Assembly (NCBI GenBank): GCA_964365465.1
Contig: CAYIPT010000002.1
Location: forward strand, 1 to 42,434
DNA from: an uncultured Candidatus Saccharibacteria bacterium
Lineage (GTDB): Bacteria; Patescibacteriota; Minisyncoccia; Phycocordibacterales; WO2-35-19
Length of the DNA stretch: 42,434 nt
Direction: 5' to 3'
Under the pieces are notes generated by a model. That model was given only the letters and a program-made list of their open reading frames with translations. It did not search any database and was not told the DNA's origin. Of the stretch, positions 7,692 to 18,646 are shown in pieces. The translations under genes were made by a program, and so were the position numbers. Within the stretch, counting starts at the first letter, position 1, and each line of letters starts with the position of its first letter.

Positions 7692-7735
7692 ACATTCATA
7701 ATAACTCACCCCTCCCTCTCTTACAACAAGAGAGG
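7692..7735 (-). promoter_or_regulatory. Promoter cassette: hairpin with -35 TTGTAA, 17-nt G-rich spacer, -10 TATTAT, 6 nt, ATG
   Basis: Minus-sense sequence is CCTCTCTTGTTGTAAGAGAGGGAGGGGTGAGTTATTATGAATGT-ATG. The same architecture occurs at 18527-18593, 18604-18646 and 27697-27741. Confidence 0.5.
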
Positions 7736-14542: not shown

Positions 14543-15310
14543 CTAATTTTTTATTGGTACTTTTTCTTTTCCAATTTGGTATTTATCAAATTTTTCTTTG
14601 TAGGCATTAAAAAGATCTGTGGCAAAATCAAGTATGTTTTTTGTGTGTTTTTCCATATCTTTTGCAACACGTTGTTTTCTTGTCCGAAAACCCGTAGTTC
14701 CCGATTTTTTATTAGTAGTGTTGATGTCCATTTCGTGGATTATTTGATTTCTAACACCAAAAGTTTCTTTTAAGCTTTTTTCTTTTTTGTTTACTAAGTT
14801 TTCTGTGTCTAGCCCAGATGCCTCGGATACCTTACATAACTCGCTAACTGATTGAAGGCTGTCTCCAGACAAGCTTTCAATATAATCTGAAAGAAAAATG
14901 GCTCTCGGATTTTGATCAATCAGCGCAAGCGCAATCGTATTAAGCACAATTGCTTCATTTCTTTTTAATCCTTTTTTAACATAGTCTTTAAATTTATTTA
15001 TGGCAAGCTGATCCACATTAATTAGTTCTGGTAATTTAGTTTTTATTAGTTGTTTAACAAACACGTCTAGGCCCGAGCAGGCAAAAACGAGCATGGCTCT
15101 ATATAAATCCTGTTGTGCAGAAGTTGAAGGGCCACCAAGAATCCCTTTTCTACCAGCTTGATAAAGCGATCTGAAACTATTTACTGCCTCAACTGTTTTT
15201 GATAAGGAAACATATTCCGGGTAAAAAATATCTCTTTCTTTCTGTGGTGTAAGCGATAAAATGTAAAAATTTTTAACCTTTTTAACTCTTTTTGAAATAG
15301 TCTTTTTCAT
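14543..15310 (-). CDS. Uncharacterised protein with a HEPN-like RNxxxH motif
   Basis: 255 aa. FGVRNQIIHEMD, with R187 to H192 encoded at 14735-14752, lies in a helical C-terminal half. Confidence 0.6.
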   Translation of the reverse strand: MKKTISKRVKKVKNFYILSLTPQKERDIFYPEYVSLSKTVEAVNSFRSLYQAGRKGILGGPSTSAQQDLYRAMLVFACSGLDVFVKQLIKTKLPELINVDQLAINKFKDYVKKGLKRNEAIVLNTIALALIDQNPRAIFLSDYIESLSGDSLQSVSELCKVSEASGLDTENLVNKKEKSLKETFGVRNQIIHEMDINTTNKKSGTTGFRTRKQRVAKDMEKHTKNILDFATDLFNAYKEKFDKYQIGKEKVPIKN

Positions 15311-15317
15311 AAGTTCT

Positions 15318-15653
15318 TTACGTTACATTGTCTTCCTCGGCAGGAAGAGCAGAAGCCATTGCTGTGGAAAATAATCCATCAAAATGAGTTAGAACAGATT
15401 CTATAAAACGGCCATGGTAAATTGCGTATATAACAGATGATATGCTTTTATTTTTTGGTCGGAGTATAGAAAAAATAAGTTGCTGTGAGCTAATCTTTGG
15501 ACGGAGCCATGCTTGATATTTCCATTGTTCGGTATTATGTGTAAAGTCTCCATTTTCATCAACAAGCCAAGTAACTATTCGCCCATCTTTTATAGCTTTT
15601 TTTATTTCACCAAGAAGCAATTGTGGATTAGTTGTATTAAAATATATGGCCAT
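15318..15653 (-). CDS. Uncharacterised small protein
   Basis: 111 aa. 11 nt downstream of the endonuclease candidate and 7 nt upstream of the next gene. Confidence 0.55.
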   Translation of the reverse strand: MAIYFNTTNPQLLLGEIKKAIKDGRIVTWLVDENGDFTHNTEQWKYQAWLRPKISSQQLIFSILRPKNKSISSVIYAIYHGRFIESVLTHFDGLFSTAMASALPAEEDNVT

Positions 15654-15664
15654 AAATAAAACGA

Positions 15665-16186
15665 TTAATTGGGTACTGGCAATCCTAATTTTTGCAAAGG
15701 CAAATATTCAAAATAATATTGGCAACCAACAGAAATTATATAATCCAAGACATCTTTATAAACTGGATTTTTGAACCATTCGCTTAAAATATAAATGTAT
15801 TCAACTTCTATATTTAGAGGAGCCATCAGTTTAGCGTATTGTTTCCTTTTGAAATCGCAAGTTTGCAATTTTTCATCAACCGAACCAGCAACTTTTTGAA
15901 ACTTAACCTCAATGACAAACAGTGTGTTATTTATGATCACATACAGGGCTTCGTCTGGGAGTAATTTTTTTGAAAGAATTTTTTTATAGTCAACTTTTTG
16001 AGATTCAAGAAATTTATATAGAGCATTTTTCCTATAACTTCTAGCTACTTCTTTCTTTTCGTAAAAAATAACATTGCCTTTTACTTCATATCCTTTCTTC
16101 TTTTTTAAGAGCTGTAGAATATCCGTTTCTTTTTCAAAATTAAGTCCTGTTATTGTGTTTCCTCCGCCAACCCCTTTTTCTATCAT
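15665..16186 (-). CDS. Type II restriction endonuclease candidate (PD-(D/E)XK)
   Basis: 173 aa. LPDEALYVIINNTLFVIEVKFQK fits a D...ExK motif. It starts 11 nt after the methyltransferase stop. Confidence 0.55.
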   Translation of the reverse strand: MIEKGVGGGNTITGLNFEKETDILQLLKKKKGYEVKGNVIFYEKKEVARSYRKNALYKFLESQKVDYKKILSKKLLPDEALYVIINNTLFVIEVKFQKVAGSVDEKLQTCDFKRKQYAKLMAPLNIEVEYIYILSEWFKNPVYKDVLDYIISVGCQYYFEYLPLQKLGLPVPN

Positions 16187-16197
16187 GTTATTTTTTA

Positions 16198-17019
16198 TTA
16201 AATTTTTAAATCCCCAAATCTTTTTTTTGATAATTCCAAATAGTTTTTTTCCATGTCTATACCGATAAACTTTCTGTCATTCAAGGCGGAAGCAATACCA
16301 GTGGTAGAACTGCCCGTGAAAGGATCAAGCACTACATCCCCCTTATTAGTACTAGATAACACGATCCTTCTTAAAAGATCAAGTGGTTTTTGTGTTGGGT
16401 GTTTGCCATATTTTTTCTCCTCTGGTTTTGGTGGATTAACAGACCAAACAGAACGCATTTGCAAATTTGGCTTTTTCAATTTATCTTCTATCCAATCCCC
16501 ATTTTTCATTAAATCGTAATTGAAAGTATGCTTGGCTTTTTTCTCTTTTCTTGCCCAAATAATCGTCTCGTGGCTGGCAGTAAAAAATCGGCAACTTAAA
16601 TTTGGCGAAGCATTTGGTTTGAACCAAGAAATGTCATTTAAGATGTGATAACCGAGAGATTGCAAAGCGTGTCCGCATTGATAAATTGAATGGTATGTTC
16701 CGCTTACCCAGAGCGTTCCGCTTGGTTTTAATACTCTCTTGCATGCCTCAAGCCAGCGATAATGAAAATCATAGTCATCATTAAAACCTTTGCTTATGTC
16801 CCAAAATCCTTTGTTTACACTTACCATTCTTCCTGCATGAACGGTAAATCCTCCATTTGAAAGATTGTATGGAGGATCGGCAAAAATCATATCAATAGAA
16901 TTATCTGGCAATTGGGAAAGAATACTTAAGCAATCACCTAAATACAGCACAAAATTGCCACTTATAAAATATGGTCTATTTTGAACTATTGAAAGTATTT
17001 TTCTTTCGGCTACTACCAT
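16198..17019 (-). CDS. DNA N6-adenine (or N4-C) methyltransferase, beta-type order
   Basis: 273 aa. IFADPPYNL (motif IV) comes first and DPFTGSSTTGIAS (motif I) lies near the C-terminus. Confidence 0.9.
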   Translation of the reverse strand: MVVAERKILSIVQNRPYFISGNFVLYLGDCLSILSQLPDNSIDMIFADPPYNLSNGGFTVHAGRMVSVNKGFWDISKGFNDDYDFHYRWLEACKRVLKPSGTLWVSGTYHSIYQCGHALQSLGYHILNDISWFKPNASPNLSCRFFTASHETIIWARKEKKAKHTFNYDLMKNGDWIEDKLKKPNLQMRSVWSVNPPKPEEKKYGKHPTQKPLDLLRRIVLSSTNKGDVVLDPFTGSSTTGIASALNDRKFIGIDMEKNYLELSKKRFGDLKI

Positions 17020-17091
17020 AATTACTAAATTATAGCATCAAATTCTTTTTGAAGATAACAAAACAAAACGCATATACCAGAAAATCAAGTG

Positions 17092-17162
17092 CTGGGAGGG
17101 AAGGAATCGGACCTTCATACACAGCTTCAAAGGCTGTTGTCCTACCGTTAGACGACCTCCCA
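17092..17162 (-). tRNA. tRNA-Gln (UUG)
   Basis: Hand fold: acceptor UGGGAGG/CCUCCCA, D arm GUCU-AACGGUA-GGAC, anticodon arm ACAGC-CUUUGAA-GCUGU, T arm GAAGG-UCCGAUU-CCUUC. No encoded CCA. Confidence 0.8.
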
Positions 17163-17166
17163 ATAT

Positions 17167-17418
17167 TTATTTTTCAATTTTTAACTTTCCTTCCATTATT
17201 TCTCTACCGTACCCAGTTTTATAAAATTTTTCAGCCCGCTTTGCTAAACTGTAAGAAGTATAAGCCTCATAATACATTAATTCAAATGGCCCGTTGTTCT
17301 TCGTGTACTTTCCTCCTGTTCCACTATTATGTTCCGCAAATCTCCTTTTTAAATTATCTGTAGAGCCACAATAGAACCGGCTATTCTTCTTACTTCTTAA
17401 AATATAAGTATAAAACAT
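17167..17418 (-). CDS. GIY-YIG nuclease family protein (YhbQ-like)
   Basis: MFYTYILRSKKNSRFYCGSTDNLKRRFAEHNSG...YYEAY. The track ORF N-terminal extension (to 17481) runs through a tRNA fragment and a GC-rich insert. The stop lies 4 nt before the tRNA-Gln 5' end. Confidence 0.8.
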   Translation of the reverse strand: MFYTYILRSKKNSRFYCGSTDNLKRRFAEHNSGTGGKYTKNNGPFELMYYEAYTSYSLAKRAEKFYKTGYGREIMEGKLKIEK

Positions 17419-17422
17419 GGAT

Positions 17423-17482
17423 TTGTCCTCGCCTCTCCGGCGAGTCGCCGAGGAGGCGACTACCGTTAGACGACCTCCCAAT
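17423..17482 (-). repeat. Duplicated 5' part of tRNA-Gln interrupted by a 32-nt GC-rich palindromic insert
   Basis: 17460-17482 is identical to 17142-17164 (23 nt). ttgtcct at 17423-17429 matches 17137-17143. The intervening ~17428-17459 is tcgcctc...gaggcga. Confidence 0.8.
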
Positions 17483-17485
17483 TTA

Positions 17486-18526
17486 TTACTCTTTATTTAT
17501 ACCACAACTATCTATAATCGCGAGTTCAATGGGTAGTTCGGGTATGGAAGCGTAAGCTTGGCGGGAGTAGGCCTCTAAAAAGGCCAACAATGTTTTGGAA
17601 TTTATATTTTTGGCGGTTTTGGCCAGTTCCGAAAGTTTTTCAAATTCTTCTTCGCCCGTTTCATCTATTATTAAATCTTTTATTTCTTTTGTGTTTGAAA
17701 AACGAAGCAAAAGAACAAAACGCAGAGAGCGCAAAATCATTTTTAAAAAAACCTGCATATCGGCATTTTCTTCACCAGCTTTTCTTACCGCCCCAATCCC
17801 CTTTTCCGCATTTTGTTCGGTAATACTTTCTAAGACCTCCAAAATAAAATCGACTTTGGGCGCTCCCAAGACCTTTTCAACCTCGGCGTGCGACAACTTT
17901 TTATCTGCCGATGAATTTATAATTTTTTGCAAAATAGAAAGGGCGTCGCGGAAAGAGCCATCAGCCAAAGTGGCGATAAGCGAAGCGGATCTTTTTTCTA
18001 TTTCATTTTTTTCTTCCTTGCAAACTCTGATGACTGACTCAATCAACATTTGATGAGTCGGTTTTTTAAAGGCGAAACATTCGCAACGGGAGACCATCGT
18101 ATCCGGTAATTTATGCGGCTCAGTGGTGGCCATTATGAAAATCACATGTTTGGGCGGCTCTTCCAAGGTCTTGAGAAAAGCGTTCCAGGCCTCTTTGGTT
18201 AACATGTGGGCTTCATCAACAATATAGACCTTATATTTTGAAGAGTAAGGATAAGTATGAACTGCATCCCTTATTTCTCTAATTTCATCAATACCCCGAT
18301 TGGAAGCGGCGTCTATTTCATAAATGTCTTCATTGTTCACTCCCAGCAATTTGGCAAAAATGCGGGCCACGCTTGTCTTACCTGTTCCTCTGCTTCCTGA
18401 AAACAAATAAGCGTGAAAGACCTTTCCCGTCTTGGCTTCGTTTTCCAAAACGCTCACAATATGCTCTTGCCCTTTTATTTCCTCAAACTTTGTAGGGCGG
18501 TATTTTCTATATAAAGCGATTTCCAT
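17486..18526 (-). CDS. dnaX: DNA polymerase III subunit gamma/tau (short form)
   Basis: 346 aa. GSRGTGKTSVARIFAK is Walker A, YIVDEAHMLT is Walker B, and SRC is present. Confidence 0.9.
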   Translation of the reverse strand: MEIALYRKYRPTKFEEIKGQEHIVSVLENEAKTGKVFHAYLFSGSRGTGKTSVARIFAKLLGVNNEDIYEIDAASNRGIDEIREIRDAVHTYPYSSKYKVYIVDEAHMLTKEAWNAFLKTLEEPPKHVIFIMATTEPHKLPDTMVSRCECFAFKKPTHQMLIESVIRVCKEEKNEIEKRSASLIATLADGSFRDALSILQKIINSSADKKLSHAEVEKVLGAPKVDFILEVLESITEQNAEKGIGAVRKAGEENADMQVFLKMILRSLRFVLLLRFSNTKEIKDLIIDETGEEEFEKLSELAKTAKNINSKTLLAFLEAYSRQAYASIPELPIELAIIDSCGINKE

Positions 18527-18593
18527 ATTCTGTATTCTATACTAAAATTTAAAATAACTCATCCCTAACCCTTCCCTTACAACAAGGGAAGGG
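18527..18593 (-). promoter_or_regulatory. Promoter cassette copy upstream of dnaX
   Basis: Minus-sense CCCTTCCCTTGTTGTAAGGGAAGGGTTAGGGATGAGTTATTTT...TAGAAT-7nt-ATG. The hairpin is at 18569-18593. Confidence 0.45.
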
Positions 18594-18603
18594 AATCCGA
18601 GCT

Positions 18604-18646
18604 CCCTCTTGTTGTAAGAGGGGGTTGGGGGCGTTATAATCATGGT
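18604..18646 (+). promoter_or_regulatory. Promoter cassette copy upstream of ddl
   Basis: Hairpin CCCTCTT-GTTGT-AAGAGGG, -35 TTGTAA (18612-18617), 17-nt G-rich spacer, -10 TATAAT (18635-18640), 6 nt, then ATG at 18647. Confidence 0.55.

Follow-up and report, generated by a model that had tools for sequence, protein, structure and literature searches.

How could a nuclease gene be lodged in an essential transfer RNA gene without killing its host? The question is raised by a stretch of 42,434 nt, referred to here as the window, which is contig CAYIPT010000002.1 of an uncultured Candidatus Saccharibacteria bacterium (assembly GCA_964365465.1), and in which a small GIY-YIG nuclease open reading frame (ORF) was found between a 5' fragment of tRNA-Gln and an intact tRNA-Gln gene. 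The tRNA genes of the candidate phyla radiation (CPR) are short, essential and often single-copy, and should be forbidden to insertions. The cassette described here has a way round this, by which a spare tRNA is brought or recreated and the nuclease gene is parked between a dead stub and a live copy. Such a cassette is real, mobile and homing-like, and on balance the window locus is probably one copy of a selfish, homing-like cassette family that resides inside tRNA genes of CPR bacteria.

On the minus strand the order of the locus was dnaX stop codon, a 23-nt copy of tRNA-Gln(UUG), a 32-nt GC-rich insert, GACAA, ATCC, the ORF, ATAT and the intact tRNA-Gln. The dnaX gene (18526..17486), which encoded DNA polymerase III gamma/tau of 346 amino acids (aa) with Pfam DNA_pol3_delta2 and related domains and had orthologues at 84-88% aa identity, ended with GAG TAA followed by another TAA, leaving 3 nt between its stop and the tRNA fragment. 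This fragment, named fragment A (17460..17482, minus strand), was the dead 5' stub of tRNA-Gln (nt -2 to 21) and an exact 23-nt repeat of 17142-17164; it read AT plus TGGGAGGTCGTCTAACGGTAG (17482-17460), contained the acceptor 5' strand and the D-arm up to GGTAG, and was not recognised as a tRNA by Rfam. A double-hairpin element (17428..17459, minus strand, 32 nt, or 33 nt with G17460) was inserted after tRNA nt 21 and ahead of nt 22, in which 17460-17455 paired with 17449-17444 (H1) and 17443-17439 paired with 17433-17429 (H2). By direct sequence reading, it was followed by a short 5' untranslated region (UTR; 17419..17427, minus strand) composed of GACAA, a remnant of tRNA nt 22-26 (17427-17423), and ATCC; when the insert was taken out, the direct repeat amounted to 28 nt. 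The nuclease gene of 83 aa (17167..17418, minus strand, ATG at 17418, stop ending at 17167, Pfam PF01541) was the only copy in the window, and 4 nt (ATAT) past its stop started tRNA-B (17091..17162, minus strand), an intact tRNA-Gln(UUG) identified by ARAGORN and Rfam (61.8 bits), which is presumably the functional gene. What the sequence-only reading made earlier had said about the sequence was correct base for base, including the coordinates, the 23-nt repeat, the insert, the ORF and the 28-nt repeat.

A generic dispersed repeat within the window could be rejected, since the 21-nt tRNA core had only two exact matches there (none in 100 dinucleotide-preserving shuffles) and the tRNA piece with its hairpin occurred at this locus alone; the element itself remained single-copy in the 42 kb even at 3 to 7 mismatches. 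A group I/II intron or other RNA family was also rejected for 17050-17520, where the tRNA was the sole Rfam match at gathering or E <= 1 thresholds, and the downstream tRNA was uninterrupted, unlike an intron-split tRNA gene. An integrase island was rejected too, with no integrase among the neighbours and a repeat made of the tRNA 5' end.

Whether the locus had once been an ordinary tRNA gene could be answered by comparison of the dnaX-tRNA-Gln junction in relatives, a check that the sequence-only reading had proposed and which revealed the empty site. The window DnaX gave no record in an exact database look-up, and homologues were used instead. In two relatives (L081/L083), whose DnaX was 87% aa identical and whose Ddl-dnaX DNA was 78% identical over 2.2 kb, the dnaX stop was followed after 1 nt by an ordinary tRNA-Gln(UUG), the ORF, the hairpin and the repeat all being absent, and the window stub lay exactly where this tRNA begins. 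The empty-site tRNA of L081 showed 5 differences from tRNA-B, and past the tRNA, synteny between L081 and the window resumed only at window 11487-10570. The comparison supports reading the window cassette as an insertion into the resident tRNA-Gln(UUG) gene after dnaX. The empty-site tRNA-Gln (L081:5058-5130) read GGTCGGACA, while cassette loci read GGTAGGACA (window 17142-17162), the exact insertion point of the hairpin; the L081 sequence could be a resistant allele or mere drift. The closest homologue of the window ORF (80% aa, L088-L090) had the same TAAATAT junction and was followed by a tRNA with 71/72 nt identical. It was situated about 10 kb from dnaX on a contig with an 84% DnaX, with degenerate hairpins upstream and no stub, so that the window ORF-tRNA unit recurred at a different genomic place in L089.

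The arrangement was not confined to this genome. A scan of one genome per species revealed 559 relatives of the ORF, and the homologues were proteins of CPR/Patescibacteria; the best 80 loci, which were analysed, all came from CPR/Patescibacteria metagenome-assembled genomes. Among these 80, the ORF lay immediately 5' of a same-strand tRNA in 54, with gaps of about -23 to +150 nt, and the tRNAs were Gln-CUG (22), Gln-UUG (18), plus Val, Pro, Gly, Ser and Leu. ARAGORN also called two other tRNAs, located 184-187 nt inside long ORF calls. When the window was added to the 54 homologous ORF-tRNA loci, 43 of the 55 had an upstream 5' fragment of that same tRNA (21 with no mismatch over nt 1-21), the kind of locus that the sequence-only reading had proposed to search for, and 36 of the 55 had the same GC-rich double hairpin after D-loop position 21. 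Past the hairpin the stub resumed with the next bases of the local tRNA, GACA in Gln loci and TAC in a Pro locus (L028), and in some loci it extended to the anticodon arm (L006, L020, L028). In one main-subfamily locus (L052:1479-2142) the ORF was directly 5' of the transfer-messenger RNA (tmRNA) gene. In a Val subfamily the corresponding D-loop position was occupied by another type of hairpin, rich in AT, and in a third subfamily the ORF was enclosed by long inverted repeats (CCCCACACC.../...GGTGTGGGG) and inserted in RNase P RNA (L054:2864-3469 and L075:2850-3490), 16S rRNA (L079:2899-4665) and other contexts. The nuclease subfamilies coincided with their own hairpin type, flanking architecture and host RNA. 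A second GIY-YIG ORF of a different subfamily was stacked at the same tRNA locus in L009:3380-3640 and L026:1630-1930, and in L026 a separate hairpin-bearing tRNA 5' fragment lay ahead of each ORF, which indicates that one site was invaded repeatedly.

The GC-rich insert is a separate, dispersed double-hairpin mini-element and not part of a private junction. In 34 distinct copies from the protein-found loci, the two-hairpin model was 99.7% paired with compensatory changes in 7/11 pairs, a covariation reached by 0/500 shuffles. A single long hairpin for the 32-nt insert was rejected, since its covariation was no better than in shuffled controls, though DNA thermodynamics prefers it. The element was searched with a fuzzy consensus, and a metagenome consensus scan gave at least 120 loci with at least 132 instances. 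Among the matches listed, 15 instances were located just past an intact tRNA, typically ahead of a 3' tRNA fragment, and 67 elsewhere, of which at least 15 were inside long ORFs. One of these (L113:10820-10851, minus strand) encoded VASSATRRGGG in frame at the junction of the Toprim and C-terminal domains of GyrB; in-frame elements in protein-coding genes were also observed in L112, L123, L137, L141 and L158. The base before the element was G in 99% of instances and the base before that was A in 76-95%, and extra hairpins piled up in the T-loops and anticodon loops of dead tRNA parts. In addition, public ORF calls of several nuclease homologues extended upstream and translated the hairpin as 'VVASSATRRRGGD', which means that the GC-rich insert was conserved in other genomes.

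Mobility was revealed by pairs of loci in which element and flanks had different histories. Between L025 and L148 the syntenic upstream genes were 68% nt identical, versus 98% for stub, hairpin, 5' UTR and ORF; the similarity ended at the ORF stop, and the intact tRNAs differed (TGCGGGA... versus TGGGAGG...). Between L008 and L010 the flanks were unrelated and the outer tRNA halves differed (TGGGGTA/TACCCCA versus TGGGAGA/TCTCCCA), and the common segment, 80% identical, ran from hairpin through ORF, leader, intact tRNA (71/72), trailer and GGTAG to a second hairpin. In L004/L006 and L001/L009 the cassette alone was in common. These data are best read as gene flow whose common denominator is the ORF, with one or both tRNA flanks co-carried over variable distances; if gene conversion is induced by a break, co-conversion with such variable flanks is expected. 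What remained of the invaded tRNA (nt 22-76) was detected downstream of the second hairpin in L008, L010, L002, L015, L019 and L096, while in the window the best score for such a 3' remnant was only 16 and none was found. The sequence-only reading had the GIY-YIG element integrate into the tRNA gene while carrying a replacement 5' segment. Integration was borne out by the empty site of L081/L083, and the replacement failed as a general rule: exchange of the 5' segment alone is impossible where the acceptor stems of stub and intact tRNA differ, and in L008/L010 the whole intact tRNA and the hairpins were common to both loci, with the host's own 3' tRNA part downstream.

The leader and trailer around the intact tRNA were complementary in L002, L004, L008, L010, L015 and L025, and compensatory changes in this helix were found between L008 and L010; around the window tRNA no such helix was detected, the score being 11 and in AT-rich sequence. 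Intact tRNAs bounded by a complementary leader and trailer (for example CCCCGCACC.../...GGTGCGGGG) were also observed in L099, L100, L134 and, downstream of the ORF, in L148/L025; each lay within the anticodon region of a dead tRNA of the same type that carried a hairpin, and some were without an ORF. A processing stem and a mobile tRNA module are candidate roles for this helix.

Signs of decay, which is expected of selfish nuclease genes, were found in two forms. In L111, 93-97% identical on both sides to L030/L115, where the locus was filled, the duplication and hairpin were kept and the ORF was missing. The sequence-only reading had named a duplication without the GIY-YIG gene as contrary evidence, and L111 is formally such a case, but the outgroup L049 carried an ORF of the same subfamily as L030/L115, so the ORF-less state is probably due to ORF loss. 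In the groundwater metagenomes holding the window sequence (runs X1-X3), a related strain had a 92-nt deletion inside the ORF (window 17290-17381), at a depth of about 8 for the deleted form versus about 5 for the intact form. A joint 17155/17421, linking the hairpin 3' flank directly to tRNA nt 8, was weakly supported in the same runs. Between L030 and L111 the D-stem variants G11-C24 and T11-A24 were swapped between stub and intact tRNA, which suggests gene conversion or exchange between the two tRNA copies.

The window ORF matched PF01541 at residues 1-72 with E = 2e-19 and 70.1 bits (cut-off 22.6). Alignment with 25 homologues showed that Y3, Y5, E29, H30 and E63 were invariant and that Y16, G18 and R26 were at least 90% conserved. 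The top PDB matches were 1zg2 (E = 1.4e-8), 1ywl (2.2e-7) and SLX1 7cq2, and the group I intron endonuclease model TIGR01453 reached 23 bits, below its cut-off of 56. These matches made the family assignment unambiguous at the sequence level: the protein is a minimal Slx1-like/UPF0213 GIY-YIG domain, nearer to UPF0213/Slx1 than to I-TevI/UvrC, and not a classical sequence-reading homing enzyme. A DNA-binding or accessory domain was sought in the 83-aa protein and none was found, leaving the catalytic domain alone.

Several features concerned expression of the nuclease. GAGG/AGGA was present in the 3' strand of H2, which could be a candidate ribosome-binding site, with the GAGG/GGGGA of hairpin 2 located at 8-13 nt before the ATG, and the 5' UTR folded better than shuffled sequence (z = -2.6). 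Promoter and terminator scans of the locus were no better than shuffled controls, and no RNA run containing the sequence was found. Transcription in the window would probably come from dnaX, because the tRNA of the relatives starts 1 nt past the dnaX stop and no terminator was found, and the tRNA would subsequently be cut out by RNase P. The suggestion of the sequence-only reading that the tRNA matures out of the 3' part of the nuclease mRNA is plausible because of the missing terminator and the gap of only 4 nt. In 17 of the 54 loci the ORF stop was within the first 10-23 nt of the tRNA. The stop was, for example, the TAA of the D-loop. The overlap was 15 nt in L017, L032, L033, L037, L039, L041 and L049, 23 nt in L057, L058, L061 and L071, and 10-21 nt in others. 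In this case RNase P cleavage of a co-transcript would strip the stop codon and produce a non-stop mRNA, which could limit expression of the nuclease.

How the cassette enters a tRNA gene can be proposed from its anatomy, the empty site, its recurrence, the contrast between element and flank identity and the covariation of the hairpin, from which we infer the cleavage, the recombination route, the transcription and the processing. The cassette consists of the Slx1-like GIY-YIG gene, an intact tRNA directly 3' and a stub with a double hairpin at 21/22 directly 5'. The intact tRNA brought with the nuclease gene would keep the locus functional and the host alive. To the left of the ORF the stub (nt 1 to about 21-44), and to its right the complete tRNA (nt 1-76), would act as overlapping, highly conserved homology arms. 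When a naive tRNA-Gln gene meets cassette DNA, the ORF would be copied into the naive gene through these arms, by repair or by ends-out recombination, and probably once the nuclease has induced a break. The outcome would automatically recreate stub, ORF and intact tRNA, and the insertion would be phenotypically neutral. Co-conversion tracts would vary in length, and stub, intact tRNA or both would travel with the ORF. Recombination between overlapping arms would explain why the beginning of the stub coincides with tRNA nt 1 or precedes it by a few bases, why the ORF abuts the tRNA, why a 3' remnant is mostly missing and why the insertion is harmless. The double hairpin, interrupting the direct repeat, should hinder pop-out of the ORF; it may also be a structure bound by the nuclease, and is the obvious candidate for a domain-only Slx1-like enzyme.

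Several points weigh against this proposal. A long target site calls for a DNA-recognition module, which a protein made of the catalytic domain only does not offer, and stand-alone domains of the Slx1-like lineage are regarded as housekeeping, structure-specific and mostly vertical (PMC1564403). The founding events in at least 12 tRNA species are not explicable by homology arms. The element was followed by a GIY-YIG ORF in 27 and by none in 105 of the 132 instances among the matches listed, and at least 11 instances of stub, hairpin, short spacer and intact same tRNA had no ORF (Trp, Thr, Gly, Pro, Met, Lys and Gln), which indicates that the duplication does not strictly depend on the nuclease gene. 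The intact tRNA of the window kept GGTAG|GACA, the sequence split by the hairpin in the stub, so the self-immunity of an occupied allele is left unexplained. At last, the window ORF-tRNA was 83% identical to its closest relative versus a background of 76-77%, a slight excess.

The dispersal of the hairpin invites a comparison with repetitive extragenic palindromes (REP), palindromes of about 35 nt accompanied by a single-copy nuclease gene, RAYT, that is flanked by inverted REPs and encodes an HUH/Y1 enzyme, the two being a possible autonomous/non-autonomous pair. By this analogy, the 83-aa nuclease and the 33-nt hairpin may form such a pair, with GIY-YIG in the place of RAYT: the nuclease would recognise the hairpin by its structure and spread it through CPR genomes; this idea is tentative, and we give it a minor chance. 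The spread of the hairpin would reach protein genes in frame and the elbow loops of tRNA genes, and the nuclease gene would ride in the cassette with tRNA sequence as universal homology arms. As the resident tRNA is disabled and the only working copy supplied, the cassette would be hard to lose, a kind of gene-level addiction. The cassette differs from RAYT/REP in that its enzyme is of the GIY-YIG type and its hairpins are in direct orientation, and mobilisation is putative.

The palindrome might also have come before the nuclease. According to this account, which seems unlikely, a 33-nt mini-palindrome of the REP kind, or of the kinds known from Rickettsia and fungal mitochondria (see below), is the primary selfish agent hitting tRNA D-loop DNA, survivors need a spontaneously duplicated spare tRNA, which gives stub, hairpin and intact tRNA, and the GIY-YIG gene arrives later, either as a hitch-hiker or as a nuclease acting in trans to mobilise the hairpins, in the way RAYT serves REP. 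The rarity of the ORF beside the dispersed element, its in-frame copies, the conserved bases at -1 and -2, the extra hairpins in T-loops and anticodon loops, the match of each nuclease subfamily with its own hairpin type, and the fact that the ORF-less combination of stub, hairpin and tRNA covers more tRNA types than the ORF-bearing one all speak for such an order of events. However, several independent steps would be needed per locus, which sits badly with the nearly uniform position of the ORF, abutting or overlapping the intact tRNA; the ORF-less state appears derived in the one polarised case (L111), gene flow is centred on the ORF, and one hairpin in the 42-kb window gives no sign of a burst. 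The duplication could instead be a product of the insertion itself, an explanation that we consider improbable. Here an imprecise insertion of the ORF, through nicks, either staggered or directed by structure, at nt ~26-44 and the 5' end of the tRNA, or through break repair that switches template to the sister copy, duplicates tRNA nt 1 to k as a long target duplication, the hairpin is added later, and selection retains only products with an intact downstream tRNA. It accounts well for stubs that always match the local tRNA across the 12 or more tRNA species, which demands a process that duplicates local sequence, as well as for the variable stub ends (nt 26, ~38 and ~44) and ORF-tRNA gaps (-23 to +56 at most loci) and the missing 3' remnant at most loci. 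The constant hairpin position is left unexplained by it, and the nested L010, L148 and L002, where the 3' tRNA part downstream is of the host type but the sequence of the intact tRNA is another, cannot be target duplications; the 2-nt overhangs left by GIY-YIG enzymes also count against it.

A purely vertical operon would turn the argument round, with the GIY-YIG protein as a housekeeping factor (for example in DNA repair or RNA metabolism) co-expressed with tRNA-Gln, and with stub and hairpin as a regulatory leader that sequesters the ribosome-binding site. The mostly vertical descent assumed for Slx1-like stand-alone domains (PMC1564403), the very wide distribution of the arrangement in CPR, the ribosome-binding motif ahead of the ATG and the folding of the 5' UTR are in line with this. 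It is contradicted by the empty sites in close relatives and the ORF-less and internally deleted variants, by the 98% identity of the element versus 68% in the flanks, by association of the ORF with many different tRNAs and also with the inside of RNase P RNA and 16S rRNA, and by hairpins far from any ORF. In our judgement the vertical operon is largely refuted by the presence/absence and identity data, and we hold it to be very improbable. The preferred reading is still the homing-like cassette, with the tRNA sequence serving as homology arms.

Known mobile elements resemble this cassette in parts. Islands with tRNA-targeting integrases duplicate the 3' end of the gene as attL/attR, encode the integrase and restore the gene by a partial tRNA repeat; the cassette is similarly an insertion into a tRNA gene with a partial repeat, but it is without an integrase and repeats the 5' end. 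The atp6 hybrid gene of Allomyces, reportedly described by Paquin and colleagues in 1994, belongs to the fungal mitochondrial cases. In fungal mitochondria, free-standing homing endonuclease genes (GIY-YIG/LAGLIDADG ORFs) come after atp6 and cob, and beyond them a C-terminal segment of the host gene is duplicated (PMC6279837). In both systems a nuclease ORF separates an essential gene that is intact from a partial copy that has been displaced, with presence/absence polymorphisms and degenerate ORFs, and the insertion does no harm since the lost part of the gene is supplied or rebuilt by the element. Unlike these cases, the host gene of the cassette is a bacterial tRNA whose 5' end is duplicated and whose dead copy is split by a double hairpin, and the nuclease is an 83-aa Slx1-like domain, not of the I-TevI type.

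In CPR bacteria, GIY-YIG ORFs have been described in non-intron insertions of rRNA genes (Tsurumaki et al. 2024, PMC11270868), in a study that leaves out tRNAs and doubted homing for this family. The organisms and the protein family are the same, a group I/II intron is missing in both, and L079 is such a 16S insertion. The tRNA cassette differs in that it depends on a second copy of the gene, since a fragmented rRNA can still function and a split tRNA cannot. SegB of phage T4 is a free-standing GIY-YIG homing endonuclease in a tRNA gene cluster (PMC2330249), and resembles the cassette in that the nuclease gene adjoins tRNA genes. It cleaves the tRNA-gene DNA of a relative and is inherited with flanking tRNA markers; cleavage has been demonstrated for SegB and is putative for the cassette. 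SegB also possesses DNA-binding modules and creates no tRNA duplication or hairpin.

For the hairpin, the nearest published counterparts are the double-hairpin elements (DHEs) in the mitochondrial DNA of fungi (PMC10085805, which cites Paquin et al. 2000). They are, like the CPR element, short GC-rich units of two hairpins, near-identical across species and located in intergenic regions and RNA genes. The CPR element is distinguished by being bacterial, by its 33 nt, by a strong preference for the tRNA D-loop and by its physical tie to a GIY-YIG gene. Rickettsia palindromic elements (RPEs) and the GC clusters of yeast are related phenomena, and both insert in frame into protein genes. In the open-access literature no description was found of tRNA-linked GIY-YIG cassettes or of a tRNA split by a nuclease gene and a double hairpin with a spare copy, nor of this hairpin family in CPR or other bacteria.

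The layout, which recurs in dozens of ultra-small CPR genomes, appears to be a means, so far undescribed, by which selfish DNA settles in essential tRNA genes and leaves its host alive. If the proposed mechanism is true, the tRNA sequence would be a portable homology arm with which the element crosses deep phylogenetic distances, and a selfish and mobile role would fall to the minimal GIY-YIG domain of the Slx1-like type, a group seen until now as housekeeping. Three puzzles of CPR genomes, the insertions in rRNA, the insertions in RNase P RNA and the tRNA pseudo-fragments, are linked by the cassette, and its hairpin gives a bacterial counterpart of the mitochondrial double-hairpin elements that also remodels proteins. 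Stubs and hairpins of this type will confuse the annotation of tRNAs and ORFs.

Past tRNA-B, the minus strand of the window encoded an N6/N4 DNA methyltransferase (17019..16198, Pfam), a PD-(D/E)XK nuclease (16186..15665, Pfam) and, after a 111-aa ORF, a RiboL-PSP HEPN protein (15310..14543) in the variable region following tRNA-Gln. This region (14543-17019) was missing from the syntenic relative L081, and it looks like a small defence island. On the other side of dnaX, the Ddl-dnaX intergenic region (window 18551-18643) contained a distinct C-rich palindromic motif, CCCCCAACCCCCTCTTACAACAAGAGGG ... CCCTTGTTGTAAGGG, which was conserved in L081 and had a second, partial copy at window 7696-7735.

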